Source: a virus | Direction: 5' to 3' (one strand) | Length of the DNA stretch: 64,000 bases | Virus record (IMG/VR): IMGVR_UViG_3300021467_000093 | Location: 4,409-68,408 of that record | Shown here: piece by piece, positions 42,824 through 63,799 of the stretch | Numbering within the stretch: position 1 is the first letter of the stretch | Layout of the letters: every line of letters starts with the position of its first letter | Position numbers and translations under genes: made by a program | The notes under the pieces: model-generated | The model's database searches: none | What the model was told of the DNA's origin: nothing | Seen by the model: only the letters and a program-made list of their open reading frames with translations

Positions 42824-42850
42824 GTCGCTTGATAGCGCATGAATTGAAAC
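42824..42850 (+). CRISPR. Solitary shortened type I-C-like CRISPR repeat
   Basis: GTCGCTTGATAGCGCATGAATTGAAAC: same GTCG start and TGAATTGAAAC end as the array repeat; CGCT/AGCG stem. Confidence 0.7.
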
Positions 42851-42875
42851 AAAAAACAAACGCCTATGAACTTAT

Positions 42876-42931
42876 GCACTAATTGACATAAATTATAACT
42901 GTTTTTAAGTGTCGATTAGTGCTATTTTTTT
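42876..42931 (+). terminator. Intrinsic terminator-like hairpin
   Basis: GCACTAATTGACA / TGTCGATTAGTGC stem followed by a T-run. Confidence 0.65.
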
Positions 42932-42942
42932 CAAAAAAAATG

Positions 42943-42971
42943 TTTACAATATTGAAAATATATTCCATAAT
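42943..42971 (+). promoter_or_regulatory. sigma70-type promoter for the prkA unit
   Basis: TTTACA-N17-CATAAT. Confidence 0.65.
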
Positions 42972-43007
42972 ATATATAGAGAATTACATTAGTTTGGAGG
43001 TGGCAGA

Positions 43008-43325
43008 ATGCCAGAAATTACAAAAAATTATATTCGAATACCAGTTAAACGAAAACGAAAATCTAATGAATTAAGAACTATAACTTTAGGAAAAGGAATT
43101 AAGGCACTATACGATGTTAAACGCAAAATAATAGTTACCTACCTGTTTGATAAAACAAAATATACAATGAAAGAGGCAAAGGAGTGGGTTAAAAAACATA
43201 GTAATAATGCAACATTGGAATTGGTTGCTAAAAATTTGATATTGGCAAATGAGTTACATTTGTCATTAGAGAATATAAAAGAGGAAGTTTTTAATAGAAT
43301 AAATGAAAAAGGAGAAGATCTATGA
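43008..43325 (+). CDS. Hypothetical protein
   Basis: 105 aa with SD ggagg; YLFDK..YTMKEAKEWVKKH resembles a small module found in phage proteins. Confidence 0.6.
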   Translation: MPEITKNYIRIPVKRKRKSNELRTITLGKGIKALYDVKRKIIVTYLFDKTKYTMKEAKEWVKKHSNNATLELVAKNLILANELHLSLENIKEEVFNRINEKGEDL

Positions 43326-45268
43326 ACTTTGAAGAAATCATAGCCAAGCAAAAAGAGGAGCAAAAATTTGAAAATTGGGAAGGTACTTTAATTGATTATC
43401 TAGAACTAGTTAAAAGTAATCCTAAAATTGCTACATTTGCGCCTGGTCGAATCTATAATTTGATTATTAATAAAGGAGTTGAAGAAGTCGACGAATCGTT
43501 AAAATTGCGAGGTTATGAAGATTTAGTCAAATATAAATTTTTTGACGGAAAAATATTTGGCGCATTAGAACCTATTCATGATATAATGAAATTTTTAAAA
43601 GCAGCTGCTAGGCGTACTGAGACTGGTAAACGTATTTTAATTTTAGTCGGTCCTGTTAGTAGTGGTAAATCTACAATAGCTGCATTATTGAAAAGAGGTT
43701 TGGAAAATGATCCGATCCCAAAATACGCTATTAAAGGATGCCCAGTACATGAAGAACCACTTCATGCTATACCACTGAGCGATAGAGAATTTTGGGAAGA
43801 GCAGTTAAATGTTAAAATAGAAGGAGTATTGTGTCCAGTATGTCAATATAGATTAGATACAGAGTTCACTAAAGATGGTATTGCTAATTGGGATAAATTA
43901 CCTGTAGAACGTATTAGATTTTCTGAACAAAAGAGAGTTGGTATTGGTACTTTTCAACCATCAGATCCAAAAAGCCAAGATGTAACAGAATTGATTGGTA
44001 GAGTAAATATGGCTAAAGTAGCACGATATGGAGAAACAGACCCGCGTGCATTTTCGTTTGATGGAGAACTTCAGGTTGCCAATGGCGGATTAATTGAAAT
44101 GGTTGAATTATTAAAAACAGATATTAAGTTACAATATGTCTTAATATCATTGGCACAAGAACAAGTTATCAAGTCGCCTGGTTTTCCACAAATGTATATA
44201 GACACTCTTGTGATTGCTCATACCAATATGACTGAATTTGATATTTTTAAAGCTGATAAGAAAAATGAGGCTCTCCATGATAGAATGTATCCTGTATTTG
44301 TTCCTTGGAATTTGAGAGTTGACGATGAGATCAAGATTTATGAAAAAATGATCAGAGAGTCTGATTTTAGAGATATACATATTGCTCCATATACATTAAA
44401 AATAGCAGCACAGTTTGCAGTATTAACAAGATTAGTTGATTCTGCAAAAGTTTCAAATAAAATTGAAAAAATGAAACTGTATAATGGGGAAATATCAGAA
44501 GGATTTAAAAAGACTGATATTGATATTAAAGAATTGCGCCAAGAAGGTAGAGATAAAGGTGAAGGATTGAAAGGTATTTCACCTCGATTTATTATAAATG
44601 CATTGAATGTAGCATTAGGAGCGAAAGAAGATAAGAAATGTGTGAATCCTATTGATATAATAAGAGCCTTAAGAGATAATTTTAAACATCATATAGGAAT
44701 AAATGAAGAAGAAATAGATCATTATTTGAATTTATTAATTGGCGACAAAGATTCAGTGAGTGCTGAATACAAAGAGATAGCTAAAAAAGAAGTTAATATG
44801 GCCTTTTTATATGCTTATGATGATCAAGCTAATGCACTTTTTGAGAACTATATGAAAAATATTTCAGCTTATTGTTTAAAAGAAAAAGTGTACGACTCTG
44901 TAACTGGGGAGTATTCAGATCCTGATGAAAAATTGATGAGATCATTAGAAGAGTTGATTCCAGTACCTGAAAATTCAAAATCGGAGTTTAGAAATGGTGT
45001 ATTTGTATATAAATCGCATGCATTAGAGCAAGGAAAGCAATTTAAATATACTGATTACCCGCCATTACAAGAGGCTATAGAGAAGAAACTGATGGCAGAT
45101 TTAAAACCTATGGTAAGTTTGTCGTTAGCAGATAAATCCGTAACTAATCCTAAAGCTAAAAAACGTAGAGAAAAAGCATTGCAGACATTATTAGAAAAAG
45201 GTTATTGTGAAGAATGTGCAAATGTTTTATTGGCTTTTGTCGGTGAAATATTACGTAAGGAAGAATAA
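43322..45268 (+). CDS. prkA: PrkA/YeaG AAA+ ATPase/serine kinase
   Basis: WEGTLIDYL, KRILILVGPVSSGKST, CPVHEEPL, GTFQPSDPKSQD, EALHDR, GISPRF. Confidence 0.95.
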   Translation: MNFEEIIAKQKEEQKFENWEGTLIDYLELVKSNPKIATFAPGRIYNLIINKGVEEVDESLKLRGYEDLVKYKFFDGKIFGALEPIHDIMKFLKAAARRTETGKRILILVGPVSSGKSTIAALLKRGLENDPIPKYAIKGCPVHEEPLHAIPLSDREFWEEQLNVKIEGVLCPVCQYRLDTEFTKDGIANWDKLPVERIRFSEQKRVGIGTFQPSDPKSQDVTELIGRVNMAKVARYGETDPRAFSFDGELQVANGGLIEMVELLKTDIKLQYVLISLAQEQVIKSPGFPQMYIDTLVIAHTNMTEFDIFKADKKNEALHDRMYPVFVPWNLRVDDEIKIYEKMIRESDFRDIHIAPYTLKIAAQFAVLTRLVDSAKVSNKIEKMKLYNGEISEGFKKTDIDIKELRQEGRDKGEGLKGISPRFIINALNVALGAKEDKKCVNPIDIIRALRDNFKHHIGINEEEIDHYLNLLIGDKDSVSAEYKEIAKKEVNMAFLYAYDDQANALFENYMKNISAYCLKEKVYDSVTGEYSDPDEKLMRSLEELIPVPENSKSEFRNGVFVYKSHALEQGKQFKYTDYPPLQEAIEKKLMADLKPMVSLSLADKSVTNPKAKKRREKALQTLLEKGYCEECANVLLAFVGEILRKEE

Positions 45269-45288
45269 TTCTATGAATGGAGGTAAAT

Positions 45289-45459
45289 ATGTTTGAAGAT
45301 ATTTTAGGACATGAATATAAGGAATGCTCTCAAAAAGATGAGATACTACGATATCCAAAGTCATGTCCATACTGTGGAGCATCAGATATTGGATTGGGAT
45401 CTGTGGATGGGCATACAACTTATTTTTTTTGTGCTAAATGTGGTTATACTTGGGAGTAA
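45289..45459 (+). CDS. Small zinc-ribbon protein
   Basis: MFEDIL...CPYCG...CAKCGYTW. Confidence 0.6.
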   Translation: MFEDILGHEYKECSQKDEILRYPKSCPYCGASDIGLGSVDGHTTYFFCAKCGYTWE

Positions 45460-45464
45460 TTCTA

Positions 45465-45656
45465 ATGTTTGATGATATTTTATCTACAACCAATGATAAA
45501 GACAAGTTAGAGCATTCTGATGTTGAGAATAGTGATTTTGTTTATGCTTACAGTTGTCCAATTTGTGGTTCTGTTAATCTTACTATACACACATTTGGCA
45601 ACGGTAAAGTAACTTTGTACTGCGTTAACTGTAATTTTCTATGGAATAGTGACTGA
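45465..45656 (+). CDS. Small zinc-ribbon protein, paralog of the preceding ORF
   Basis: MFDDIL...CPICG...CVNCNFLW. Confidence 0.6.
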   Translation: MFDDILSTTNDKDKLEHSDVENSDFVYAYSCPICGSVNLTIHTFGNGKVTLYCVNCNFLWNSD

Positions 45657-45689
45657 CAAATATTTAATGAGGACTCCCTTGATTTAATA

Positions 45690-45768
45690 GTTACACTTGA
45701 TAGTGCATGAATTGAAACAGAAGATTGATAAATTTATAGGTCGCGCTTAATAACATATGAATTGAAAC
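45690..45768 (+). CRISPR. Degenerate two-repeat mini-array with a 21-nt spacer
   Basis: GTTACACTTGATAGTGCATGAATTGAAAC (45690-45718), spacer AGAAGATTGATAAATTTATAG, GTCGCGCTTAATAACATATGAATTGAAAC (45740-45768). Confidence 0.75.
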
Positions 45769-45779
45769 ATGGAGGCTCT

Positions 45780-48398
45780 ATGACTATAATTTATCATCCC
45801 GATTGGGATATGTCAGAAAAAGGAAAGAAAGATGTAGAACGTCATCATAAAAAGATAGATGACGCTATTCGTAAAAGTGTAAAAGATGTAATAGCAGAAG
45901 AATCAATAATTACTAAGAAAAAAGGCAAAAAAGTTAGGATTCCAGTCCGTGGACTGAAAGATTATAAATTTATACATGGAGAAAAGGGCAAGGGAAAGGG
46001 AAAAGGGGATAAAAGTGAAGGAGAAGGAGAAAGTGAGGGAATTGGACAGGGCAAAGGTAAGCCTGGTGATATTATAGGCCGTAGACCAAAACAAGGCCCC
46101 GGTAAAGGTGGAGAAGGCAAACCTGGAGATAAACCAGGAGAAGATTACATTGAAGCAGAAATTGATATTGATTATTTAATTGAAATAATGTTTGAAGACT
46201 TGGGGTTACCTTGGATACAAGAAAAAACGAAAGCTCAGCAATTAGTTCCTAGTGGTTGGAAATTTGAAACAGTATCTAAGGTTGGTATTTTACCACGTTT
46301 ACATAAAAAACGTACTATTTTAGAAGCTATTAAAAGAAACGAGTTATATGCTCGTGAAATTGTAGAAGAATTGAAATGTGGTTATGAATTAGCCCTTAAA
46401 GCACTAGTTCAGGCTAATGGAGATATAGATGATGCAATTCAATTAATTAAAAATAACGAAGTAAATGAAGATGTTGATCCATATATTATTATTGAGGATG
46501 AAGATTTACGTTACAAACAAATAGAGCAAGATTTTGAATTACATTCTAATGCTGTAGTTATTGCAGCAATGGATACCAGCGGGTCGATGACCACGGATAA
46601 AAAATACTTATGTCGTTCATTATTATTTTGGTTAGTAGAATTTTTAAAGAAAGTTTATGATTATGTAGATATAAAATTTATAGTACATACTACTGAAGCT
46701 AAATTAGTAGACGAAGATACGTTTTTTTATAAAGGTGAATGTCATACTGATAATCACTATATTTTAATGCATGATGGTAGTATTAAAGACATAAAAGATA
46801 TAATTATTGGGGACAAGGTGGTTTCTATCAATAAGTTTGGTGAAAAGGAAATAAAACCAGTTACTAGAGTATATTCTAGAGAGGTCGAAGATTTATTAGA
46901 AATAGATTTAGTAGGCGCTGGTAAATTAAAATGTACTCCTCAACACAGATATTTTGTTTTTAACATAGATAATGGAAATATATATGAGAAAAAAGCTGTG
47001 AATATTGATATAAACAAAGAATACTTATTAATGCCCAACATTAACTTATTTGAAGATGATGATGAAATTGATGAAATGAATTATGTTATTGGATTTATAT
47101 TTGGTGACGGGTATGTAAAAGATAGAAGCATCAACATTACTGATAAAGATGTACGCAATTTAGAATATTTAAAATCTATATTAGACAGGTTTAATATTAG
47201 TAATAATATAATTTGTGGTGACAGGAATAGATTATGGATCTATAGTAAAAAATTTTGTGATTATATACGTACTAATTATAGCGGTTGTTGTGAATTGTCA
47301 CCAAAGAGATATATAAATAATAATATTAGTAAATTAGGCAATAAAAATTTAGCTTTATTTTTAAGTGGTTTGTTTGATGCTGAAGGACATGTAGGTGAAA
47401 AATCAATTCAACTGACAATGTCTAGTAAAAAAATTATTAAGCAAATATATAATTTATTATTAAGGTTTGGTATAGTATCGTCATATACATATCAAAAACC
47501 GAGCTATAAATCATTTGGATGTGTCGATGGTAAAATTTATCATAAATTACAGATACAGGGTGATAATTTAATAAAATTTAATAAGTTAATTGGATTTAGG
47601 TCTAAGCAAAAAAATGAAGCATTAGAGTTGTTGTGTAATAATAGATCTAAGACATCAACTAAAACTAGGTCACCGGTAGTATTATTTGATAAACATATAA
47701 GAGACTATATAAATTATACAACAACTAAATTAGATGGCTATAATTTTTTTAAATATGTACCACATAGATATTTTAATACTAAGATCTTACCAAGAAAATA
47801 TGTTGAAAGATTATTAAATGATTTTAAATTTATTGATGATGATAATTTTGTTAGTGCTTATAGCAATTCATTTAATCTAGTAAAAATAAATTCTATAGAA
47901 CCTATAAAAGATAAAACTAAGGTGTATGACTTAACAATTAAAGATAATAGTTCGTATATAATTGATGGGGTATATAGCCATAATTCTGGAGGAACGTTTT
48001 GTTGGACAGCAATAGACAAGGCTATATATTTAATTGAAACTGAATATCCAGTTGAAGAGTGGAATGTTTATTGTGTATATGTAAGCGATGGTGATGACTT
48101 TGATCCACAGAAAACTGTACGTTATATAGATGAACTAATGAAAAAAAGAATAAATATGTTCGCATATACAGAGGTTAAACCGCAATATTCTTCAATAAAT
48201 CATACTATTAATTTAATGTGGGGGTCTCAGAATACATTAATTAATACTATTAAGAAAAAATGGAAGTTTAATTGTAGAGTTGAAGACGGGGCAGAGTTTT
48301 GTAGAAATGATAATTTGCATATGATTTTATCTACTATTAGAAATAAAAACCATGTATATCCAACTTTAAAACATATTTTGTTTGAGAAAGTAAAGTAA
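45780..48398 (+). CDS. yeaH: YeaH/YhbH (DUF444, vWA-like) protein containing an intein
   Basis: DVERHHKKI, GIGQGKG, FEDLGLP, DLRYK, MDTSGSM, YVSDGD; SD GGAGG before the ATG at 45780. Confidence 0.9.
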   Translation: MTIIYHPDWDMSEKGKKDVERHHKKIDDAIRKSVKDVIAEESIITKKKGKKVRIPVRGLKDYKFIHGEKGKGKGKGDKSEGEGESEGIGQGKGKPGDIIGRRPKQGPGKGGEGKPGDKPGEDYIEAEIDIDYLIEIMFEDLGLPWIQEKTKAQQLVPSGWKFETVSKVGILPRLHKKRTILEAIKRNELYAREIVEELKCGYELALKALVQANGDIDDAIQLIKNNEVNEDVDPYIIIEDEDLRYKQIEQDFELHSNAVVIAAMDTSGSMTTDKKYLCRSLLFWLVEFLKKVYDYVDIKFIVHTTEAKLVDEDTFFYKGECHTDNHYILMHDGSIKDIKDIIIGDKVVSINKFGEKEIKPVTRVYSREVEDLLEIDLVGAGKLKCTPQHRYFVFNIDNGNIYEKKAVNIDINKEYLLMPNINLFEDDDEIDEMNYVIGFIFGDGYVKDRSINITDKDVRNLEYLKSILDRFNISNNIICGDRNRLWIYSKKFCDYIRTNYSGCCELSPKRYINNNISKLGNKNLALFLSGLFDAEGHVGEKSIQLTMSSKKIIKQIYNLLLRFGIVSSYTYQKPSYKSFGCVDGKIYHKLQIQGDNLIKFNKLIGFRSKQKNEALELLCNNRSKTSTKTRSPVVLFDKHIRDYINYTTTKLDGYNFFKYVPHRYFNTKILPRKYVERLLNDFKFIDDDNFVSAYSNSFNLVKINSIEPIKDKTKVYDLTIKDNSSYIIDGVYSHNSGGTFCWTAIDKAIYLIETEYPVEEWNVYCVYVSDGDDFDPQKTVRYIDELMKKRINMFAYTEVKPQYSSINHTINLMWGSQNTLINTIKKKWKFNCRVEDGAEFCRNDNLHMILSTIRNKNHVYPTLKHILFEKVK
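46740..47984 (+). mobile_element. Intein with LAGLIDADG endonuclease (415 aa) in YeaH
   Basis: YKGE|CHTDNH...CTPQH...IGFIFGDG...LSGLFDAEG...VYDL...YSHN|SGGT. Confidence 0.92.
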
Positions 48399-49633
48399 TG
48401 GCACAAAAATTTACATATAATTATGTAAAAACTTATATAGAAGCGAATGGCTATAAATTACTAAGTACCGCATATATTAATACCCACACTAAATTATTAA
48501 TACAGTGTGAAAAGGAGCATATTTATAAACAATGTTTTAACGTCTTTAAAAAAGGACATAGATGTCCAATATGTGCTAGAAATTCTAGATATAATTATAA
48601 TGAGGTAAAGAAGTATTTTAAAAAATATAACCACATTATTATATCTGGCAAATACACTAATATACATAGCAAGTTATTAGTCAAGTGCACATGTGGGAAT
48701 ATTTATGTAACTACGTTTAATAAATTTAAAAATAGAAAAAACAAATGCCCTGCATGTAATGATTATTTTGTAACTACTAAAAAAGTTAGACAACATCTTA
48801 AACAATATGGACATATCTTACTTTCTGTCTATAAAGGTGCTAAACATAAACTAAAAATTAGATGTACTAACGGCCATATTTATTATAAAACATGGAACAG
48901 TATAAAAGCTGGGCAATTATGCCCTATTTGCAATAGGCAAAAGAAATTATCTATAAATTATATAAAAAATCAAATGTTAAGAGAGGGTTATTGTTTAATA
49001 ACTAGAGATTATATTAATAATAGAAGTATGTTGGAAGTTAAATGTCCTAATGGACATATTTATACTACATGTTGGAATTATTGGCAACAAGGAAATCGAT
49101 GTCCTATATGTGCAGGAAATACAAAATATTCTCAAGAAGAATTAATCGCATATTTTAAACATTATGGTTATACATTGCTAAGTCCTTATAAAAATAATAA
49201 AACTAAATTAACGTTGTTATGTCCTAATAACCATAAATTTAAGATGACATTAAACAATTTTATGTGCGGACAACGTTGTCCGATTTGTATGAGATGGAGG
49301 TCTAAGTATGAGTTAGAATTAGAAAGTATTTTAAAGTCGTGGGGAATTGATTTTAGATCTAACGATAAAAGTATATTAAAAAATCCATACACTGGTAGGC
49401 CGTTAGAGTTAGATTTTTACATACCGACGCTTAAAAAAGCTATTGAGTTTAACGGTAAATATTGGCATAATTTAGCCAAAATACAAAAAAGAGATATTAT
49501 AAAAATGGAAGTCTGTGTTAGTAATAATGTAGAACTATTTGTTATTAATGAGGATGAGTGGCTCAGCAACAAAGTTAAAATTATTAAACAATTAAAACAA
49601 TTTCTAAATGTAAACTCTTCAATAAACAATTAA
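48398..49633 (+). CDS. Zinc-ribbon-repeat Vsr/DUF559-like homing endonuclease
   Basis: Five repeats plus ELDFYIP..KKAIEFNGKYWH. Confidence 0.82.
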   Translation: MAQKFTYNYVKTYIEANGYKLLSTAYINTHTKLLIQCEKEHIYKQCFNVFKKGHRCPICARNSRYNYNEVKKYFKKYNHIIISGKYTNIHSKLLVKCTCGNIYVTTFNKFKNRKNKCPACNDYFVTTKKVRQHLKQYGHILLSVYKGAKHKLKIRCTNGHIYYKTWNSIKAGQLCPICNRQKKLSINYIKNQMLREGYCLITRDYINNRSMLEVKCPNGHIYTTCWNYWQQGNRCPICAGNTKYSQEELIAYFKHYGYTLLSPYKNNKTKLTLLCPNNHKFKMTLNNFMCGQRCPICMRWRSKYELELESILKSWGIDFRSNDKSILKNPYTGRPLELDFYIPTLKKAIEFNGKYWHNLAKIQKRDIIKMEVCVSNNVELFVINEDEWLSNKVKIIKQLKQFLNVNSSINN

Positions 49634-49656
49634 TTTATTCGTTATAGGAGTAATAG

Positions 49657-51171
49657 ATGGAGCAAAATGAGTTACGTAGACTAATAAAAATAGAAAATCG
49701 TATAAATCAAATAGTAACTGAAGAATTAAAGCTTAATTGTTACCCAATTGAATTTGATGTGATCCCTGCTCAAAAAATGTTGGAAGTGATGGCCTATAAC
49801 ATCCCAACAAATATAAGTAATTGGAAATACGGGAGAGAATATGAAAGAGAAAAGACTATTTATGAACATAGTGGGAGATCCCTCCCATATGAGGTTGTGA
49901 TTAACTCAAATCCAGCAAAAGCATATCTAATGAAGGAAAATAGATTTGCAGTGCAAGCCCTAGTTATTGCTCATGTTTATGGTCATGTTGCTTTTTTTAC
50001 TAATAATAAGTATTTTCAAAATTCTAGACAAGATATTATAGGTATTATGTATGAAGCGTCTAAGCGTTTCAATGAGTATGAACGTCGGTATGGAATAGAT
50101 GAGGTAGAAAAAACTATAGATGCTGGACATGCCTTACAAAGGCATTCTAGTCCATTTGAATTAGGAGAAACTGAAGACGAAAAAAGAAGAAGGATCTTTG
50201 AACAGAGGAAAAAGCAGTTATATACACATGGTGGAGAATTTTCCGATCTTACTAATTTTGAAGTTGATAAAATAAATGAAGATATTGAATTATACAATCA
50301 AAAATTGTGGCGTAAATTAAAATTAAAAAGCCCGGTCGAGCCTACTGAAGATATATTGAGATATTTAATAGATAATTCAAGAGTTCTAGAAGATTGGCAG
50401 AAAGATATTTTAGAAGTATTGCGTATGGAAGGTCAGTATTACTGGCCAATTATTAAGACTAAAATAATGAATGAGGGGTTTGCTGTTTTTATCCATGAAA
50501 AAGTTATTAATCAATTATATAATGAGGGTTTAATAACAGATTCTGAACATGCTGAGTTCAATTATGCAAATTCACTAGTAAAAGCTGAAAATCCATTTAG
50601 CATTAATCCATATTTAATAGGTTCTAAAATTTGGGAAGACATAGAGGATAGGTGGAATAAAGGACGTTATGGCAGAGAATGGGAAAATTGTGTAGATTCA
50701 AGAAAAAAAGCGGTTTGGGATACTAAAGAAATGAATGGGTGGCAGAAATGTAAAGAAGTTATGACCACTTATATCGATTGGTTTTTTATTCAAGAATTTT
50801 TAACCGCAGAATTAATTCAAAATCTAAACTTGTATTTATTTAGTGCTAAAGAAACAGCACAGTCGATTGATTATGTAATTACTAAACGAGACGCAGAAGA
50901 AATTAAACAAAAAATTGTACAGTTTTTATCTATCAATAGAATTCCTACAATACTAGTTGAAGATGGTAATTTTAATAATAAAGGAGATTTAAAATTAAAA
51001 CATAAATACGATGGATTACCATTAGATGTAACTAATGCTGAAGAAACTTTAAAGCATATTGAATATTTATGGGGTTCTAGAGTCGTATTATATACGTATG
51101 ATGATGAGGACCTACTTGTGTTAGTTTCAAGTGCTAATAAAGACGAAGAAGACGAGTCAGATGATGAATAA
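49657..51171 (+). CDS. spoVR: SpoVR/YcgB family protein
   Basis: PYEVVINSNP, VIAHVYGHVAFF, EDWQKDIL, TKIMNEG, NPYLIG. Confidence 0.93.
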   Translation: MEQNELRRLIKIENRINQIVTEELKLNCYPIEFDVIPAQKMLEVMAYNIPTNISNWKYGREYEREKTIYEHSGRSLPYEVVINSNPAKAYLMKENRFAVQALVIAHVYGHVAFFTNNKYFQNSRQDIIGIMYEASKRFNEYERRYGIDEVEKTIDAGHALQRHSSPFELGETEDEKRRRIFEQRKKQLYTHGGEFSDLTNFEVDKINEDIELYNQKLWRKLKLKSPVEPTEDILRYLIDNSRVLEDWQKDILEVLRMEGQYYWPIIKTKIMNEGFAVFIHEKVINQLYNEGLITDSEHAEFNYANSLVKAENPFSINPYLIGSKIWEDIEDRWNKGRYGREWENCVDSRKKAVWDTKEMNGWQKCKEVMTTYIDWFFIQEFLTAELIQNLNLYLFSAKETAQSIDYVITKRDAEEIKQKIVQFLSINRIPTILVEDGNFNNKGDLKLKHKYDGLPLDVTNAEETLKHIEYLWGSRVVLYTYDDEDLLVLVSSANKDEEDESDDE

Positions 51172-51173
51172 AT

Positions 51174-51540: not shown

Positions 51541-51569
51541 TTTTTTGTAAGGAAAAGGAGAGGCTTAGT

Positions 51570-56200: not shown

Positions 56201-56335
56201 AGAGAGCATGATAGAGATTGGTCTAGAACATTGGCAAAAATAAGCATTAAGAGTAATGAACTAAATATAGAATTACATGATATTGAAAAAGAACACGATT
56301 CACCACCATTCTATATGGAGGCTACTTCTGAATGA
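53213..56335 (+). CDS. ClpA/C-like AAA+ ATPase (NBD2 only, unrecognised N-domain) containing an intein
   Basis: VIGQ, GLKDPDKPIGAFLFTGRTGIGKS, GYVG, LFDEVEKA, IGF loop, FKPEFLNR, YGARPL. Confidence 0.9.
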   Translation: MANYKIVEVELKSVKDKVLIYKIPKADINDKLTYFTRERGLIAKSLYEDFLIATCIANIQEFLDKLKKKGITSEKLLKIRTELVDKILKVNPMMSADNLVINKNNVVKIKDDEEIDECILLIDNEYWDRDVYTKSNNKKRLNKDKIGNIQDLPHVKVQKFWKRIGQYITIKQFDPGSELTILGNRNFTSRHSFEQYIVTVCIHEVEDLFIRLDMLGLPNRVAPPILIHELYEICKKVNPFLDYDLYKDSFSTGDESVDPFANMEEAYANPEELLDRTLRPHSKHVKTFRDIESKELLKLDKKIKKKVIGQNNAVDDLVEAIQRASVGLKDPDKPIGAFLFTGRTGIGKSYCAKVLAEELIGNKRAIVVIDCSEYAADHEYAKLIGCFVPGTKVLMDDGSLKNIENVKVGDRVISHTGQVREVKNTFEYEQNGEMLQISVANSNVPIITTKGHEILAIRHKSCTKGESREYRVCKPTCSQKYCVEPPYKDYKLEWIPAEELRINDIVVYPRYKTAGEYPSRIDLVDYLKETKNYKYDDDYVWAQKHVKVPRYVLINEDFMRLAGYYVSEGGASSSGGTVNFTFNVKEINYVIEVIKLIRKIFGQDVRIRIEDRSENNSYRIYISSRIISILMSDLFGENTYKKQVPNWFINLPNDHLINFLETAIFGDGCTTIPRRVDYSTVSLTLFSQMQLMFRKLGYITYASLEKKSNPKHSDRYRLYIGGNQIDRLLDEFAGLNIDLKDLGITNIQRKAWIDDNYIYLQIKNIKSVNYKGKVYDLQVDTDTSYVVGGIGGITVHNSPAGYVGHEQGGYLTNAVRKNPFSIVLFDEVEKASDRVHQLMLQIMDEGRLTDGKGKPTSFKDVVVIMTSNLGVEEAKNVEKTIGFGDVNKLTSDKQKQAIDEALKKKFKPEFLNRITRVINFNDLTKKDYLKIIKLELEKLKTNLKLNRTIYSKLKIEFDKSVYNYIYEKGIDEEYGARPLLRAIEKEISTPLAKKLLREHDRDWSRTLAKISIKSNELNIELHDIEKEHDSPPFYMEATSE
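54368..55603 (+). mobile_element. Intein with LAGLIDADG endonuclease (412 aa) in the Clp ATPase
   Basis: KLIG|CFVPGTKV...TKGH...AGYYVSEG...IFGDG...VYDL...VHN|SPAGYVG. Confidence 0.93.
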
Positions 56336-56703
56336 CAAATAAATTAAGCCAACCAATCTATACTGAAAAAGAGTGGGGTTCTGAAATTATTTGGGCTATA
56401 ACTGATAGTTACATTTGTAAAACAATAGAAATTAGCCCATTAAAAGTAACTGACCTGATTGTATATGAAAATAAGTATAAATCTATTATAGTTGTAAATG
56501 GCCAACTTAGTTTAGCTATGGGAAAGTGTTGTGATGAATCAGATTTAGAATATTATGATTGCCCTGAAGGCTGGTCAATTTATATAGAGCCTGGGGTAAT
56601 GCATAGATATGGAGCTACAAATAATAAAGTGCGTATTATTGAAGTATCAAGCTCCGGCATAGAAGAAGGTATAATAATTCCTGAACAGTTTATCGGAGTG
56701 TAA
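56332..56703 (+). CDS. Cupin-domain protein
   Basis: EKEWGSE...IEPGVMHRY...IIEVS. Confidence 0.7.
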   Translation: MTNKLSQPIYTEKEWGSEIIWAITDSYICKTIEISPLKVTDLIVYENKYKSIIVVNGQLSLAMGKCCDESDLEYYDCPEGWSIYIEPGVMHRYGATNNKVRIIEVSSSGIEEGIIIPEQFIGV

Positions 56704-56705
56704 CT

Positions 56706-57173
56706 ATGTTAGAAGCAGATGATGTTCAATTCATATTAGTATCGTTGTTAGAGCAATATGGTGTAGATTTTGAACGTGAAGATATTGAAGATAGCGCTAT
56801 TTTCAAAATACAAAAGTTTGGGACAAAAGTAGTTTATTTAAATGGACAGCCTTTTAAGAAAACGATTTTGACTGGCTGGCTTGTTGCCTGGGTTCACCCT
56901 GATTATACAATTGATAAAGCTAGGGAAGTTATTATTTATACATTAATGGAAGGCGGCTATTTTCATTATTTACGGTTTAATTTTCCTGGGGTATATAAAC
57001 GCATAATTTCAATGGAAGGTTGGGATAGAGATATATTGGAGGAAAGGTTAAGACGCTATAGAGAATTGCCTAAATATAATTATTTTAGAGAATTGGATAG
57101 AGACGCTTTAACAGAATCATCTACTTATATTTTAGCTATTGATCCCGGTTTTTATGATTTTATGCCATCGTAG
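56706..57173 (+). CDS. Hypothetical protein
   Basis: 155 aa ORF within the operon. Confidence 0.65.
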   Translation: MLEADDVQFILVSLLEQYGVDFEREDIEDSAIFKIQKFGTKVVYLNGQPFKKTILTGWLVAWVHPDYTIDKAREVIIYTLMEGGYFHYLRFNFPGVYKRIISMEGWDRDILEERLRRYRELPKYNYFRELDRDALTESSTYILAIDPGFYDFMPS

Positions 57174-57186
57174 TGAGGGGTTAATT

Positions 57187-57408
57187 ATGTCACATCTTAA
57201 TTTAGTATTATTTATATATTTATCTGGAGTATTGGTTAGTTTTGGTCTTTTAGTTACATTAGATTCATATGGTTTGTTAACAGAAAATAACAATACGGAA
57301 GTTACTTTAGGAGTAAAAATTTTAGCATCATTGTTTAGTTGGTTGCCTGTTATTTCATTTGTAATAGGCATTATAATTGGATTTATACATTATTTACGAA
57401 ATCGTTAG
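57187..57408 (+). CDS. Small 2-TM membrane protein
   Basis: Two hydrophobic segments; SD gagggg. Confidence 0.6.
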   Translation: MSHLNLVLFIYLSGVLVSFGLLVTLDSYGLLTENNNTEVTLGVKILASLFSWLPVISFVIGIIIGFIHYLRNR

Positions 57409-57417
57409 GAGATCCTT

Positions 57418-58446
57418 ATGAAACTGTTAACATATTTTGAAATAGCAAAAATTATTACTTTTTTAGTATTTATGGGGGTACTAGTTTTTGGCGGTATAAG
57501 TGGTTATGGATGGTTAAAATCGCAACTTATGCTACAGGAAAATAAATTGAAGTTAGAATTAGAAGCTCAACGAAAGTATTTTGAGTTAAAAATAAACGAG
57601 GTACGGGCTAATACTACAGTTACTAACGACAATTCTAAATTATGGAAAGCTGAGCTTGAAGAACTGAAAAAACAAAATCAAGAGTTGTTAGCATTAATTA
57701 AAAAGAATGACGAAAAAATAACTAATATAGGTAAAATTACAACACAAACAAATGAACACCTTTCTTTAGAACTGCATAAACTTTCAGATCATGTTTACAA
57801 AGCCGGTACTGGTGATGAAAATGAACAATACTTTAAAAAAATATATATTACAGAAAAAACAAAAGACGGTAAAAAAGTACGAATACCTGTCGCATGGGCT
57901 ATTTTTTATCCTAATAGACCGGCTGCTAAAAAATGGAAAACTGGAGTTTACCCGCTTGAATTTAAAACTAAAATTGTTCAAACAGAACAAAATGACGGTC
58001 AGTGGAATACTTACGTAGAGACATGGGCCGAAAATAATAAAGATAGTAAAAGTAAAGGTATTAAGCTCCCATTAAGAATTACTATTGCAGATTTTAAGCA
58101 AGTAAAAAATAAAGATAAAGAATTTTATTGGTGGGCGCCGCATTTTAATTTAAATATAGATTTAGGTTCGGCTAATTTTAAAAATCAAAATGAAGATTCA
58201 TTTATATATGGCGGAATAAGTTTTAGTGTTGCTGGGTATGGACGAACAAAAAATGATTTAACTTGGAGATTTTTGGATTTTGGCATAAGTACGAACGGTG
58301 ATGATACATATTTAAAGTTTTCCCCGGTAAATTATAACATTGGGGAACCATTACCATTTATTAATAATACATTTGTAGGCCCCTTTGTAGGCATTTCAAA
58401 TAAAGGAGAAAATGTTTATGGTGTGGGCCTTAGCGTACCCTTTTAA
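57418..58446 (+). CDS. Membrane-anchored protein: N-terminal TM, coiled coil, beta-rich C-terminus ending in Phe
   Basis: IITFLVFMGVLVFGGI; heptad region; ...YGVGLSVPF. Confidence 0.7.
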   Translation: MKLLTYFEIAKIITFLVFMGVLVFGGISGYGWLKSQLMLQENKLKLELEAQRKYFELKINEVRANTTVTNDNSKLWKAELEELKKQNQELLALIKKNDEKITNIGKITTQTNEHLSLELHKLSDHVYKAGTGDENEQYFKKIYITEKTKDGKKVRIPVAWAIFYPNRPAAKKWKTGVYPLEFKTKIVQTEQNDGQWNTYVETWAENNKDSKSKGIKLPLRITIADFKQVKNKDKEFYWWAPHFNLNIDLGSANFKNQNEDSFIYGGISFSVAGYGRTKNDLTWRFLDFGISTNGDDTYLKFSPVNYNIGEPLPFINNTFVGPFVGISNKGENVYGVGLSVPF

Positions 58447-58459
58447 TTGGAGGTAAACT

Positions 58460-58588
58460 ATGAAATATATAATTGCTATATTGTTGAGTATTGTATTATT
58501 TACAGCTATTACGATTTATAATTCCAAATCAACCGAATTACCTCTTCCTACTATAATTAAATACTTGTCAGTTCAAAAAAAGGTTTAA
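58460..58588 (+). CDS. 42-aa signal/TM peptide (absent from the ORF track)
   Basis: SD ggagg; MKYIIAILLSIVLFTAITIY... Confidence 0.45.
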   Translation: MKYIIAILLSIVLFTAITIYNSKSTELPLPTIIKYLSVQKKV

Positions 58589-58612
58589 ATTTTTAAAGTT
58601 TTGTGTTATAAT
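58584..58612 (+). promoter_or_regulatory. sigma70-type promoter (leaderless position before the ATG at 58617)
   Basis: TTTAAA-N17-TATAAT with extended TG. Confidence 0.7.
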
Positions 58613-58616
58613 ACAT

Positions 58617-58862
58617 ATGAAAAGAGGAAATGCTATAACAACTAAACATTGGTTGGTCGTTGTATTACTTACTTTTTTAGTTACATCAGGATTCTCCTTT
58701 TATAGTCTGTTTAAAGATACTGGAGATGGATATTCAATATTAATCGTTCCAAATGTTGGGGAGCATATTGAGATTGATTATTATGGCCAAGCAATTATAT
58801 ATAGACCTAGAGGGTTTGGAATGAAAAGCCCAAGAACATTAGATGGCGGGATGGGGGAATAA
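58617..58862 (+). CDS. Small membrane/secreted protein
   Basis: N-terminal hydrophobic segment. Confidence 0.55.
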   Translation: MKRGNAITTKHWLVVVLLTFLVTSGFSFYSLFKDTGDGYSILIVPNVGEHIEIDYYGQAIIYRPRGFGMKSPRTLDGGMGE

Positions 58863-58863
58863 T

Positions 58864-59784
58864 ATGAAAAAACTTCTTATACTACTATTTAGCTTAATAT
58901 TAATTGCATTACCATTAACAGCTAACAGCAAAACCTTAGTATTTCCACATTTAGCTGTAAACCATAATTGGTCGTTTGGCCTCGCAGTAGTAAATGCAAA
59001 CCCAGAATCCGCTGATATAGTTAGAATAGAAATATGGAACGAAAGTAATCTTATTAGCACTGAACGAATTACTATAGAACCTACTGACAGATGGCTATTT
59101 ACTGGCTATGAATTAGATGTTGGGACTTATACTATAATAGTTTATTATTGTGCAGATTGGACATTTGGAACATTGATACGTACTTGGAAAGACACCCCAA
59201 TAGCAGAAGAGCCTGCCCAAGTTATTCCATACACAAGTGATTTACAGAGCTATAATTCAAAAGATTCTCGTTACTGGGTAATACTAAACACGACTAAATA
59301 TTATACAAAAGCAGGTAAATGTCCGTTTATGGCTAAATATCATTATATAAGATTTAATGAAGTGTTGAAAGAGATGTATTTACGATATAAAGATATTAAT
59401 GACATTGATCCTAAACCTTCTTTAGGTGATGCTAATGCTTCAACATGAGAGGGTCATCCGGGTGGGTCTCACTCTACAGGATCTGCTATAGATGTTAATT
59501 ATTTTACATTAGGCCCGACCAATCATACACAATATATTCCTAATGGAGCTACGCGCGCAATTATATGGGATGATGATCAATTAGTAAACTTTGATATTGA
59601 GAGAAATAGGCTGTTTGTAAAGTTAGTAAAAGATGCGTTTCCAAATGTGGTAATTTATATGGATAAAAGAATAAAAGCGAAATGCGCCAATGATCTATAT
59701 TATGTAAAAGGTAATGAACCAAAAAAATGGAATCATCATATACATATGCATTTAGAGTTGGGTGAACTTAATATTAACCAGTGA
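58864..59784 (+). CDS. Secreted MepA/LAS-like metallopeptidase interrupted by an in-frame TGA at 59446-59448
   Basis: Signal peptide MKKLLILL...ANS; reading through gives LGDANAST*EGHPGGSHSTGSAIDV...NHHIHMH. Confidence 0.65.
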
Positions 59785-59805
59785 TTTATAAAGAAAGGAG
59801 CTATT

Positions 59806-60006
59806 ATGGAATATTATTGTTCAGTGCCAATGCCAAGAGAAGATGGTAAAATTTTAGATGAGGACGGTCGATATTTTACATGTAATAGAAAAGCTAAATA
59901 TAAAGTAGGGTTTTGGTATGTATGTGAAAAGCATAAACATTATTATACAGATCCAAACAAGTGGCCAGCAATCCCATTAGAAGAATTAAAAATTACTAAT
60001 GCATAA
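59806..60006 (+). CDS. Small Cys/His protein
   Basis: 66 aa, SD aaggag. Confidence 0.55.
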   Translation: MEYYCSVPMPREDGKILDEDGRYFTCNRKAKYKVGFWYVCEKHKHYYTDPNKWPAIPLEELKITNA

Positions 60007-60020
60007 AAAAGGAGTTAAAA

Positions 60021-60230
60021 ATGAAAAAATGTAAAGTAGATGTAGAAGCAAGTTTAAGGTATCAGGAAAATGGTAGACTTACACCAGCAGAAAATAAAGA
60101 GTATGCCAAGTCTAAACTAAAAAAAGTAGTTTGTCCTAACTGTAATTTTGAAAAAGAAGTAAGTAGGTTAATATTCGGTCAACAATTACATTGCCCTAAT
60201 TGCAATACAATTATGTTGGAACAATATTAG
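60021..60230 (+). CDS. Small zinc-ribbon protein
   Basis: CPNC twice; SD aaggag. Confidence 0.6.
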   Translation: MKKCKVDVEASLRYQENGRLTPAENKEYAKSKLKKVVCPNCNFEKEVSRLIFGQQLHCPNCNTIMLEQY

Positions 60231-60246
60231 AATTAATAATAAACAA

Positions 60247-61227
60247 ATGAAAAAAGACCTCGGACAATTTTTTACAGTTAATAAAAGCTGGGTTAAACCA
60301 CACATTAAAAGGTTTATTTATTCCTTTAACAAACATACTGTGGTTGATCCTTTTGCTGGAAATGGTGATTTATTAAATTTGGCCGAAGAATTAGGCTTTA
60401 AAAAATTAATCGGGTTTGATATCGATCCCTCTTTAGGTTGGGAAATAAATGATAGTTTAATTTCTATACCAAAAATTGATAATGCCATTGTAATTACTAA
60501 TCCACCATATTTGGCTAAGAATTCAGCTAAACGTATTAATAGTAAGAGTTATAAATATTTTGAAGATAACAATTATGAAGATCTTTATCAATTAGCAATT
60601 GAAAAAGTATTAAAACAATACGAAGGGGCTGTTTTTATAATACCAGAGACCTTTATTAGAACAAATTTGTTTGCTCAATACATTGAACATATTACAATTT
60701 TAGAAGAGAATTTGTTTGAGGATACCGAATGTCCAATTTGCATTGCATGCTTTCGTAAAAATAAAACTTTCTTTGATGATTTAATTTATGATATTTATAA
60801 GAATGAATCTTTTATTTGTGACTCATCGGAAATAAAATATCGTTTATTGAGATATAAACCCAAAAAAACTTATAATGTCAAATTTAATATGCAAGATGGT
60901 AATTTAGGTTTAAGGGCAATAGATGGCGTAGATCCTAAAAACAGAATTAAATTTTGTTTACCACATGAGTTAGATTATAAAGAGGAAATCAAGGAAAGTT
61001 CAAGAGCTATAACATTAATAGAAATTGATTTTAATGTTAATAAACAATTTATTAATTTATTAAATTATTTTTTAGAAGATTATAGAGCTCGAACACATGA
61101 TATTTTTTTGGCTCCATTCAAAAATAACAATAAAGCAGGGAAACGGCGTAGACGATTGGATTATAAATTAGCACGTGATTTAATTAATAAAACTTTAGAA
61201 ACAATGGAGAAGGATTATGAATGTTAA
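60247..61227 (+). CDS. N6-adenine DNA methyltransferase (gamma-type motif order)
   Basis: LGQFFT, VDPFAGNG, ITNPPY. Confidence 0.88.
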   Translation: MKKDLGQFFTVNKSWVKPHIKRFIYSFNKHTVVDPFAGNGDLLNLAEELGFKKLIGFDIDPSLGWEINDSLISIPKIDNAIVITNPPYLAKNSAKRINSKSYKYFEDNNYEDLYQLAIEKVLKQYEGAVFIIPETFIRTNLFAQYIEHITILEENLFEDTECPICIACFRKNKTFFDDLIYDIYKNESFICDSSEIKYRLLRYKPKKTYNVKFNMQDGNLGLRAIDGVDPKNRIKFCLPHELDYKEEIKESSRAITLIEIDFNVNKQFINLLNYFLEDYRARTHDIFLAPFKNNNKAGKRRRRLDYKLARDLINKTLETMEKDYEC

Positions 61228-61885
61228 AAATTATATACGAGAACATATCAAGAAACAGGATTTAAAAAATTTATATGAAGTTCAATATGCCATTTTACTT
61301 TATTTTGAAGGTCAAAGTGAACTTCCTAAGTGGCTTGATTACAAAGTCAATAAATTAGCTGAAAAATATAATATTAAACCGATGGAAATATTAGCCAATG
61401 CTTTAATTAATAAAGTAGCCGCTATTAATCTTATTAAAAAGGCTAATAGACAAAATATAGCAGAAAAATTACAGCTTAAATATTTACGAGAAATTAGAGG
61501 TATTAATATTAAAAGGCTACCTTCCAATGGAATTGGTTCAATACGATTAAAAGATGGTGAATTTATATTTGATTCTTTTAGAGCGCCACTAGGAGCTACA
61601 AAAAGCATTGATGCAGCTTATGAAAATGATTTAATAATGCTTAAATATGTTGAAGAATCTGGTGGTGCGCAAGATAATCAAATTAGTACTATTATCCATT
61701 TCTTAAAAGAGGCACAATTATTTTTAAATAAATATGAAAATAATTATAATTTTGTTGCTATTATTGACGGTGATTATATTGAGTCTAAGTTTAACGAATT
61801 ATATAGGTTCACTAATGAAAATATTATGATTTGTACAAGTGATACTTATAGATTTGATCATGCCACATCTAGTATTAGTGTGTAA
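61217..61885 (+). CDS. Putative restriction-type PD-(D/E)XK nuclease
   Basis: KSIDA...MLKYVEESGGAQDNQ...AIIDG; overlaps the MTase gene. Confidence 0.5.
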   Translation: MNVKNYIREHIKKQDLKNLYEVQYAILLYFEGQSELPKWLDYKVNKLAEKYNIKPMEILANALINKVAAINLIKKANRQNIAEKLQLKYLREIRGINIKRLPSNGIGSIRLKDGEFIFDSFRAPLGATKSIDAAYENDLIMLKYVEESGGAQDNQISTIIHFLKEAQLFLNKYENNYNFVAIIDGDYIESKFNELYRFTNENIMICTSDTYRFDHATSSISV

Positions 61886-61938
61886 ATTACAATAAATAAA
61901 TGCGCCCCATATTCATCTGATTAAGAAAAGGAGTTATT

Positions 61939-63633
61939 ATGAGAATCATTGATCAATATTGGGAATGGGTTCAAAGACCAAATTCGCCGCTCCTGATAAT
62001 AGAGCGGGCTGGAAGAACTTGTTATAAATCAGAAGATAAAATAACAAATGATTCAGCTCAGAAATTTGTTAAAGCAATTATTAAACGTGGCCATGAATCC
62101 GTAATTGAACATGCTGTAGCATCTATTCGTTTTATTACAAATAGAGGTTGTTGTTATGATGATAAAACTGAGGTTTTAACAAAAAATGGCTGGAAATTTT
62201 TCAAAGATATAACTTATAATGATGAATTAGCATGTTTAAATAATGAAGATTATCTAGAATATCATAAACCATTACAAATAATTAAAAAAGAGTGGGATGG
62301 CTATTTATTACATTTTGAATCACGTTTAATTGATCTTTTAGTTACTCCGAATCATAATATGTGGGTTTTTGATTATGATAAAAGATCACCAAAGACACGT
62401 ATTTGGAAATTTTTAAAAGCGGAAGACTTAAAAAATAATAGATATAAATTCAAAAAAAATGCTAAATGGAAAGGAAGAGTCCAGTCTATAACAATTCCAC
62501 AACATCCAACTAAATATAAAAGATTTCCAATAATTAAGTATGATCCACAACAAACAGCAGATTTATTTGAGTTATTAGGATATTGGGTAACTGATGGTTC
62601 ATATAAATATGGGAAAAATAATGGAAGTGGTAATTCAATAATTATTACACAAAGCAAACAAATACATATAAATAGAATAAAAAATTTATGTGAACATCTT
62701 AATTTACAATATTATTATAATAATAAAACTAATTATATAAGAATAGACAATTTACGATTAGTACGTTATTTTGAATCGCTTATTGGTAAAGGTGCTAAAA
62801 CCTTTACAATTAAAGTGCCTGAACTAATAAAAGAGGCAGTACCATGGCAAATAAAACGATTTTTAGACGGTGTTATAGGTGGAGATGGTAATATACACAA
62901 AACTAATAAACATATTGTAATTTATACAGCGTCTAAAAATTTTGCAGATGATTTACAAGAATTATTTTTAAAAATTGGATTATCAGCTAACATACGAACA
63001 GAATTACCTAGAGCAACAACTCATGTGATATTTACAAAATATGGTAATGCTGAAATTAAGCACAAAAGTATTATGTATATTGTATCAGTGTATCATAATA
63101 AAAGATCTGCACATTTATTAAATAAACATACGGCATATAATTTTGCGACAAAAAAGTATTATAAAGGATATGTATATTGTGTAACTGTACCATATCATAA
63201 ATTATATGTAAGACGTAATGGTAAAGTGGTTTGGTGTGGAAATTCTCATGAATTAGTTCGTCATAGATTGGCATCCTATTCACAAGAAAGTACCCGTTAT
63301 GTAGCATATAAAGATGAAATGGAATTTATACGTCCAGTATGGTGGGATAAATGGAGCGTAGAAGAACAGCAATTATGGCTGAATACATTACAAATTATTG
63401 AAAAAAATTATCAAACACTATTGCAAATAGGATGTCATCAAGAAAAAGCACGAGAAATATTACCTAATAGTTTAAAAACTGAAATAGTAGTAACTGCTAA
63501 TCTTAGGGAATGGCGACATATTTTTAAATTGAGATGTTCAAAAGCCGCACATCCACAGATTAGAGCATTAATGTTAGATTGTTTAGAAGGATTTAAAAAA
63601 GAAATTCCAATTATTTTTGATGATTTATTATAA
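61939..63633 (+). CDS. thyX: Flavin-dependent thymidylate synthase containing an intein
   Basis: GHESVIEH, SHELVRHR..SYSQESTRY, AREILP, NLREWRH, AAHPQIR. Confidence 0.96.
   Translation: MRIIDQYWEWVQRPNSPLLIIERAGRTCYKSEDKITNDSAQKFVKAIIKRGHESVIEHAVASIRFITNRGCCYDDKTEVLTKNGWKFFKDITYNDELACLNNEDYLEYHKPLQIIKKEWDGYLLHFESRLIDLLVTPNHNMWVFDYDKRSPKTRIWKFLKAEDLKNNRYKFKKNAKWKGRVQSITIPQHPTKYKRFPIIKYDPQQTADLFELLGYWVTDGSYKYGKNNGSGNSIIITQSKQIHINRIKNLCEHLNLQYYYNNKTNYIRIDNLRLVRYFESLIGKGAKTFTIKVPELIKEAVPWQIKRFLDGVIGGDGNIHKTNKHIVIYTASKNFADDLQELFLKIGLSANIRTELPRATTHVIFTKYGNAEIKHKSIMYIVSVYHNKRSAHLLNKHTAYNFATKKYYKGYVYCVTVPYHKLYVRRNGKVVWCGNSHELVRHRLASYSQESTRYVAYKDEMEFIRPVWWDKWSVEEQQLWLNTLQIIEKNYQTLLQIGCHQEKAREILPNSLKTEIVVTANLREWRHIFKLRCSKAAHPQIRALMLDCLEGFKKEIPIIFDDLL
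62152..63243 (+). mobile_element. Intein with LAGLIDADG endonuclease (364 aa) in ThyX
   Basis: NRGC|CYDDKTEVLT...VTPNH...LGYWVTDG...IGGDG...VYC...WCGN|SHELVRHR. Confidence 0.92.
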
Positions 63634-63799
63634 TCGTACTTAATAGTGCGTGAATTGAAACATTTTATGTATTGAAGATATTGAAGGAGAGGCTTGCCGC
63701 GCCCCATGCGGGCGCGTGAATTGAAACTATTCCTTGTTGTCGGATGGCCTTGAGGTTTTCTCCGTCGCGCCCCGTACAGGGGCGCGTGAATAATGAAAA
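63633..63799 (+). CRISPR. Type I-C-like CRISPR mini-array: 3 divergent repeats, 2 spacers (34 and 36 nt)
   Basis: R1 ATCGTACTTAATAGTGCGTGAATTGAAAC (63633-63661); R2 GCCGCGCCCCATGCGGGCGCGTGAATTGAAAC (63696-63727, 32 nt); R3 GTCGCGCCCCGTACAGGGGCGCGTGAAT... (from 63764). Confidence 0.9.

Follow-up and report, generated by a model that had tools for sequence, protein, structure and literature searches.

Shortened type I-C CRISPR repeats with an invariant handle between the genes of a huge phage: possible Cas5c sites in its transcripts

The DNA analysed here, called the window, is a stretch of 64,000 nucleotides from a virus, the final 64,000 b of the 68,408-b IMG/VR virus record IMGVR_UViG_3300021467_000093. 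CheckV rates the record as 24% complete, and it is therefore a fragment of a huge phage, whose full genome would by this estimate measure about 280 kb. The window has a G+C content of 31%, and its main reading frames all lie on the plus strand. [quoted passage not shown] All four are intergenic, on the sense strand, and within transcripts, with the positions and lengths claimed in a preliminary description made from the sequence alone. By their sequence, they are satellite copies of the I-C repeat of a system that the phage lineage carries or carried.

Unit A (42824-42850, 27 nt) begins directly after the TAG (42821-42823) of a 77-aa open reading frame (ORF) at 42590-42823. It is followed by a 25-nt guide-like segment (42851-42875) and a terminator-like end (42876-42931), in which a 13-bp hairpin (42876-42888 with 42910-42922) closes a 21-nt loop and precedes a T run. 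A simple terminator scan missed this hairpin because of its long loop; the 112-nt fold of the A unit plus terminator hairpin has a z-score of -2.9. Unit B (45690-45718, 29 nt) lies 33 nt downstream of the stop of a zinc-ribbon ORF (45438-45656), and a 21-nt segment (45719-45739, the B-C segment) leads from it to unit C (45740-45768, 29 nt). Unit C has an intact handle and no stem (0 kcal/mol), and it ends 2 nt before the GGAGG Shine-Dalgarno (SD) sequence of yeaH (ATG 45780). The first base of unit D (63633-63661, 29 nt) is the last base of the TAA stop of thyX. The preliminary description had rightly placed A and D at stop codons and C 2 nt before the yeaH SD sequence, and its claim that the I-C 3' handle is kept also stands: the exact 11-mer TGAATTGAAAC is present in all four units.

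Its treatment of D as a dispersed unit has to be given up. D is the first repeat of a three-repeat array, D-E-F, on the plus strand, with spacers of 34 nt (spacer 1, 63662-63695) and 36 nt (spacer 2, 63728-63763), and the D-E spacing of 34 nt is canonical; I-C arrays typically have spacers of about 33-37 nt and stand next to I-C cas genes. Repeat E (63696-63727), of 32 nt, has the canonical I-C form, in which a GC stem of 7 bp, a 5-nt loop, and an 11-nt handle follow one another, and the terminal repeat F (63764-63799) has an 8-bp stem and a degenerate handle. The 11-mer of the type ending in ATTGAAAC follows the stem directly and is the I-C 3' part, the future 5' handle. The I-C layout of 32 nt, 7-bp stem, and 5-nt loop is found in E and F, but not in A-D (27-29 nt, 4-6 bp or none, 4-nt loop). 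Units A, B, and C lie 18-21 kb away from the array, A solitary and B and C 21 nt apart. The dispersed units include a further one, a degenerate I-C-type repeat on the plus strand at 38337-38362, with a 7-bp hairpin, a GTTGC-type 5' end, and a decayed handle. Its start lies 5 nt past the stop codon of ORF 37976-38332, and 17 nt separate its end from the GGAGG of an Hsp20-like gene (ATG 38392).

Unit D is identical in the sister contig L101, where one extra spacer and repeat stand mid-array (L101:513-579), giving four repeats against three in the window; the array thus varies between populations by internal gain or loss. The 3' end of spacer 1 (63685-63695) is the 11-mer AGGAGAGGCTT, otherwise present only at 51556-51566, at the ribosome-binding site of ORF 51570, and instead of a captured protospacer, spacer 1 may represent an old 5' leader.

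Exact copies of TGAATTGAAAC number five in the 68,408-b record (A, B, C, D, and E), all on the plus strand and all intergenic. Across the same record, the minus strand and a reversed control gave none, and no further repeat-like copy was found at ≤2 mismatches. A covariance model, run with filters off at every position of the window, scores A-D at 36-38 bits (A 36.5, B 37.9, C 36.4), E at 49, and F at 25.7, and the next window match reaches at most 11.2 bits. The model was trained on the same copies, so these scores are not independent; model-independent support comes from the exact handle, the GTCGC-type 5' end, and the canonical D-E spacing. In Rfam, no CRISPR-DR family matched at the gathering score, and only transfer-messenger RNAs (tmRNAs) reached the threshold.

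The short form has no exact match in IMG/VR and occurs in none of the genome matches listed (at least 120). Its 17-letter end gave 23 single matches, about chance level, and the upstream sequence of the short form is in none of the matches listed. Look-alikes in loci L175 and L235 were dropped as chance, being by eye coding-like sequence with no hairpin. Among the matches listed, TGAATTGAAAC also ends array repeats in genomes of Kiritimatiellae, Lentisphaerae, Verrucomicrobia, Treponema, and Porphyromonas, and repeat E equals the array repeat of a Kiritimatiellae metagenome-assembled genome (MAG; L207) at 31 of 32 positions. In the genomes with same-handle arrays, the best Cas7 is only 29-50% identical to the phage-type Cas7. 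A search of 401 Campylobacterota genomes gave 10 single handle matches and no arrays.

The gene behind the array, assumed in the preliminary description to be cas3, is a Cas3N-Cas7C deletion fusion without Cas5 in the sister contigs. In the window, the ORF from 63851 is cut off after 50 codons (63851-64000, plus strand), and the same 50 residues start the 248-aa protein P0001 on two metagenome contigs (L101:703-1446; L102:2-721). Residues 2-51 of P0001 resemble the N-terminus of a 714-aa Cas3 with HD, DEAD, and Cas3-C domains (76% identity over residues 2-50, E 1e-16), and the match ends just before the HD motif. Fused in frame, residues 51-248 correspond to the last 198 aa of a type I-C Cas7/Csd2 (TIGR02589 positions 87-272 of 284, E 2e-59); two full-length Cas7 proteins, of 281 and 287 aa, share 85% and 78% identity with this part. 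As read from these alignments, the sister contigs carry an in-frame deletion through which cas5 and cas8c are gone entirely, cas3 for the most part, and cas7 over its first third. A look in IMG/VR for a source of the intact operon gave neither P0003 nor P0122, proteins encoded by I-C operons, and P0001 is likewise not in IMG/VR. The composition of the fusion gene is phage-like (34% GC, 24% GC at third codon positions). Because of this composition, the Cas3N::Cas7C fusion itself, and its full-length relatives (Cas7 78-85%, Cas3 76%), the sequences indicate that the phage lineage had I-C genes of its own.

The end of the window record coincides exactly with the fusion junction. Assemblers stop where two variants diverge, and a variant with an intact operon may therefore coexist in the population. 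Between the array and the remnant lies a promoter-like site with an extended -10 motif (63805-63833, plus strand). The motif, TTTGTGTTATAAT, has three copies in the window (26151-26163, 58600-58612, and 63821-63833) and is probably a phage promoter class, with one copy driving the cas remnant.

Conservation within units A-D is uneven. In the handle, 0 of 11 columns vary, versus 11 of 18 upstream (Fisher p=0.0012), which shows the handle to be under constraint; the loop, CTTRATA, is nearly fixed. The short stems described earlier are borne out for D (6 bp, -6.2 kcal/mol, z -2.2) and by some compensatory changes, but the stems of A (4+1 bp, -4.5 kcal/mol, z -0.9) and B (4 bp, -2.8 kcal/mol, z -0.4) are no better than shuffled sequence, and C is stemless; for comparison, E folds at -14.6 and F at -18.8 kcal/mol. 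Across 14 distinct units, 90.5% of stem cells are paired, and two-sided changes occur in 4 of 7 pairs. The covariation score over these units, in an alignment fitted to the model, was reached by 1 of 500 shuffles. Cas5c recognition is reported to involve the site of cleavage and the nucleotides that lie downstream, with tolerance in the loop and 5' overhang, and cleavage after nt 21 yields an 11-nt handle (PMC8524198; this and the other papers are cited here for parts of their text). At the level of sequence, the pattern of constraint in the units is the one reported for Cas5c recognition.

All units follow the direction of transcription: exact handles are on the coding strand in 5 of 5 cases in the record, and model matches in 7 of 7 in the record of the closest relative (G001) and 11 of 11 in an unrelated phage, G411. 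The stems of the 38337 unit and of a unit of the relative (G001:C1:27667-27698) differ by one two-sided and three one-sided pair-preserving changes, and their 3' flanks are identical. This stem is kept with G.U pairs on the plus strand only, which argues for RNA from the plus strand.

Sequence beyond the handle is also shared. The motif A[AG]ACAA, chosen after seeing the data, follows the handle in 4 of 9 units (A and three units of the relative) versus a background of 0.57%. The B-C segment is identical at 17 of 21 positions, in register, to 63799-63819 behind repeat F; only 3 of the 63,979 window 21-mers match it at ≤4 mismatches, and one of these lies in register behind a handle (F). The idea that 63799-63819 is a Cascade target of this segment was rejected, since the protospacer adjacent motif (PAM) site reads AAA and guide positions 2, 5, and 9 are mismatched, and the 17/21 match reads as evidence of paralogy. 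The shared post-handle flanks show that units spread as repeat-plus-flank copies.

Among 70 viral loci with a PrkA relative, I-C repeats are found only in L001, the stretch of G001 whose PrkA is 90% identical to that of the window. The covariance-model scan proposed earlier recovers A-F in the window and the units of L001, and gives 0 matches in a further 1.19 Mb made up of L102 and the remaining 69 loci. Conservation in related phages, by which the preliminary description was to stand or fall, is divided: the sites of A, B, and C are empty in L001, and the relative has other lone units, one of them (G001:C1:27667-27698) syntenic with 38337-38362. The tmRNA of L001 (15278-15529, 252 nt, Rfam 69 bits) contains a lone GC-stem I-C repeat at 15414-15446, a position where the window tmRNA has a long middle region; the L001 tmRNA may be cut into two pieces by Cas5c. 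Two more lone units lie upstream of the L001 stretch, one 33 nt before an ATG and the other, with a stem full of G.U pairs, ending 3 nt before the GGAGG of an Hsp20-like gene. L001 also has a four-repeat GC-stem array at another place, before a homologue of window gene 57418-58446, and its last repeat lies 30 nt before an ATG. In the relative (L088:1-120, minus strand), thyX is followed by a tRNA gene in place of the array and cas remnant; thus, the array-cas cassette stands at different places in the two phages.

G411, the 304,025-b record behind locus L242, is rated 100% complete, has a locus GC of 42%, and is unrelated to the window phage. Its I-C array has seven repeats and the same handle, and at a distance of 54-64 kb there are four lone units. 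Every unit is on the plus strand, and the lone ones all lie inside a cluster of 25 tRNA genes (G411:C1:188000-206000, L273); for three of the four, the distance is 1-28 nt from the preceding tRNA 3' end and 42-110 nt to the tRNA that comes next. One of the lone units has the 29-nt short form with an AT stem that is seen in the window. In two, a tRNA follows the unit after 42-44 nt, which recalls the layout of a tRNA-processed guide RNA. Lone units thus recur in two other phages, and each of the three phages with such units (window, G001, and G411) also has a true mini-array.

The positions of unit C, the relative's unit before a ribosome-binding site, the last repeat of the L001 array, the tmRNA repeat, and the units among the G411 tRNAs point to RNA ends. 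We tentatively propose, as a possibility short of a probability, that the units are co-transcribed Cas5c sites that would cut phage RNAs, leave handle-capped products, and so punctuate or tag transcripts. Lying in 3' untranslated regions (UTRs), between cistrons, and just before ribosome-binding sites, they would expose a Cas5c (Cas5d) cut site and the 11-nt handle. The enzyme would come from a phage with an intact cas operon or, otherwise, from a host with the same repeat. It would cut at the 3' base of the short stem and split the upstream RNA from a downstream RNA led by the handle, on which Cas5, Cas8, and Cas7 would be able to assemble. The predicted products are handle plus 25 nt plus terminator hairpin (A), handle plus 21 nt (B), and a handle-led yeaH message (C). 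Cleavage, loading of Cas proteins, and an effect on expression are what we infer here, and they would amount to co-operative use of the I-C machinery, not a block on it. Such use is favoured over decoys because arrays co-occur with the units, and an inhibitor of Cascade would defeat them, and because of the RNA-end positions. A wider form of the proposal, in which huge phages made the I-C repeat a general RNA punctuation mark, cut by phage or host Cas5c and with a handle that recruits Cascade proteins, is unlikely. In that form, cuts at lone repeats ahead of ribosome-binding sites, in a tmRNA, and among tRNA genes would set RNA ends, a CRISPR nuclease would act as the phage's own enzyme for RNA processing and control of expression, and the tRNA-flanked units of G411 (handle, 42-44 nt, tRNA) could be natural tRNA-processed guide RNAs.

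Several observations weigh against cleavage of the units by Cas5c. Cas5c is reported to need a stem-loop (PMC8524198), whereas the stems of A and B are weak and fold like shuffles and C has none. At 38337, the handle has decayed and the stem is kept, the opposite of A-D. PF09704 (Cas5d) is unmatched in records G000, G001, and G411, and no Cas5d gene is present in any record examined, which makes the enzyme hypothetical here. In sister contig L102, the sequence behind the fusion holds nothing but unrelated phage genes, which run on the opposite strand (radical SAM, UDG, RlaP, Pol beta, RNA ligase, and a pentapeptide protein). G411, complete as it is, has no Pfam match to Cas5d or Cas7 and no ORF of at least 300 aa within 9 kb of its array, so a phage-encoded enzyme is not a general answer. 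The intergenic regions of L001 that are syntenic with those of A, B, and C contain none of these units, and the covariance model finds nothing there; such fast turnover of sites is odd for housekeeping processing signals. Spread by repeat-plus-flank copying could be neutral.

The lone repeats might instead be RNA anti-CRISPRs (Racrs) against a host I-C system, either decoys for Cas5c and Cas7 or Cracr regulators whose short guide would lead host Cascade to repress its own cas or toxin promoter, with the UTR placement merely ensuring expression; we consider this rather unlikely. The placement of A and D at stop codons recalls RacrIC1, a validated I-C Racr that lies 11 nt downstream of an acrIC5 homologue in the same transcript (PMC10651486). 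No family and no named look-alike could be given to the 77-aa ORF upstream of A. Neither this ORF nor the two zinc-ribbon ORFs of the region gave an informative family, and their Atlas look-alikes (0.84) are at lead level only. Sites that turn over fast from one close relative to the other are in keeping with an arms-race element, the likeness of repeat E to a bacterial array repeat fits a host system as the target, and G411 has units with no Cas5d or Cas7 detected. On the other hand, all phages with lone units keep a real mini-array, which needs a working Cascade, and the window lineage had its own I-C genes.

The architectures of A (repeat, 25 nt, 13-bp hairpin, and T run) and of B-21 nt-C are those published for Cracrs, of which nine two-spacer I-C arrays have been reported; what defines a Cracr is that its spacer-like segment matches a cas or toxin promoter next to a PAM, with a seed of about 9 or more PAM-proximal pairs (10.1101/2024.10.29.618823). 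No such target was found in the sequences searched, host promoters not being among them. A TTC-flanked seed of at least 9 nt for the guide-like segments was absent from 242 loci, apart from an A-rich 11-mer in an unrelated MAG, and the 17/21 match lacks a PAM and is mismatched in the seed. Target searches of the spacers, made at exact or BLAST level only, were likewise empty: spacers and guide-like segments had no match at ≤25% mismatch in 102 loci, all INPHARED matches had E of at least 0.4, and a 22-mer of spacer 2 gave 0 matches in IMG/VR.

A rather doubtful alternative makes the units orphaned relics, repeat-plus-flank copies from the time of an intact I-C system that have been idle and decaying since the operon was deleted. 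The fusion in the sister contigs, which ends just before the Cas3 HD motif and leaves no cas5 or cas8, agrees with this, as do the lost stem of C, the lost handles of 38337 and F, the lack of common sites in L001, and the duplication seen in the post-handle flanks. The short form is also found nowhere else by exact search of IMG/VR, in the matches listed, or by the model in 70 loci (1.19 Mb). However, the handle is invariant while the remainder has diverged by at least a third, and even drift would be expected of idle copies, short of a very recent loss. The stems still pair via compensatory changes, and a fixed handle with varying stems, including the 29-nt AT-stem form, recurs independently in G411. 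The end of the window at the deletion junction leaves room for a coexisting variant with an intact operon.

It is highly improbable that the units are Cas-independent cis elements, either promoter parts, the handle's TTGAAA being a near-consensus -35 box, or stabilising or terminating hairpins: TTGAAA-17-TATAAT at C (11/12), TTGAAA-16-GATATT at D, and ATGAAA-16-TATAAT at F suit a promoter, and the likeness of the B and F flanks ends in TATAGG/TATAAT at promoter spacing, but promoter-like sites are about as frequent as in shuffles (25 versus 20.3 +/- 5.4; 22 versus 17.5 +/- 4.6), the -10 box of C would fall within the yeaH reading frame, A has no -10 box, and the full 11-nt identity to I-C handles and the GTCGC 5' end are left unexplained.

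Among described systems, Racrs come close as single viral repeats that mimic the I-C repeat and are co-transcribed with an upstream ORF (PMC10651486). The units described here differ in having several copies per genome, 27-29 nt, weak AT stems, and conservation of the handle rather than the hairpin, and in coexisting with a mini-array and a cas remnant; some abut ribosome-binding sites, and those of relatives lie in a tmRNA and a tRNA cluster. Racrs inhibit interference, whereas the present units are known as sequences. Cracrs and the CreA/CreR CRISPR RNA-like RNAs (Liu et al., 10.1101/2024.10.29.618823) share the order repeat, short spacer, terminator with A and repeat, short spacer, degenerate repeat with B-C, with I-C examples reported; they differ in their target, for which 63799-63819, with no PAM, is the sole match here. 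Huge phages carry compact arrays and CRISPR systems that include a type I-C variant without Cas1 and Cas2, for which use of host Cas proteins or roles in silencing have been proposed (Al-Shayeb et al., 2020, PMC7162821). The three-repeat array resembles theirs in lacking adaptation genes and having repeats like those of bacterial arrays, but here the cas operon is reduced to Cas3N::Cas7C and the repeat has spread as lone units into transcripts. Like the canonical I-C Cas5c substrate (PMC8524198), the units are of the type with a 2-nt 5' overhang, followed by a stem-loop and, on the 3' side, by the 11 nt destined to form the 5' handle; the canonical repeat has a 7-bp stem, a 5-nt loop, and 32 nt, whereas the units have 4-6 bp, a 4-nt loop, and 27-29 nt, and one is stemless.

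Solitary viral repeats, I-C Racrs, I-C Cracr arrays, and the cas-poor arrays of huge phages are thus already known. New are the multi-copy shortened form with a conserved handle, its placement at stop codons and ribosome-binding sites, the tmRNA and tRNA-cluster units in relatives, the coexistence of lone units with arrays, and the Cas3N::Cas7C remnant. In keyword searches of the literature, lone I-C repeats were found reported neither in a tmRNA or a tRNA cluster nor right next to ribosome-binding sites, which is no proof of absence. So far, the roles known for solitary viral repeats are those of decoy (Racr) and hijacked regulator (Cracr); in the present case, several copies stand in one genome beside working-type arrays, their places, stop codons included, are those of RNA ends, and the conserved part is what Cas5c reads. 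If the units are processing sites, they would represent natural use of a CRISPR endonuclease for the maturation of a virus's own RNA and a compact natural design for releasing RNAs in multiplex. Should they be decoys, the minimum for a type I-C decoy would be this short form, with an AT stem and only the handle kept. The locus offers three testable substrates and an internal negative control, unit C, with a handle and no stem.

The genes around units A-C begin with prkA (43322-45268), followed by the two small zinc-ribbon ORFs of the prkA-yeaH region and by yeaH/DUF444 (45780-48398), which contains an intein with a LAGLIDADG domain. A zinc-finger/Vsr-like nuclease gene (48398-49633) separates yeaH from spoVR. 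L001 has neither the yeaH intein nor this nuclease gene, and its locus is therefore about 10 kb shorter. The window tmRNA (51174-51540, 367 nt) scores 105 bits in Rfam; ARAGORN called neither this tmRNA nor that of the relative. Upstream of the array, thyX (61939-63633) carries an inserted LAGLIDADG homing-endonuclease domain. Eight sequencing runs contain the stretch, all of DNA, seven labelled as hydrothermal vent metagenome and one as marine. Contigs of four runs, aligned on 42500-62499, held no usable variation at A, B, or C. The contigs of one run break at 45694, within unit B, and there is one minor insertion at 45693.

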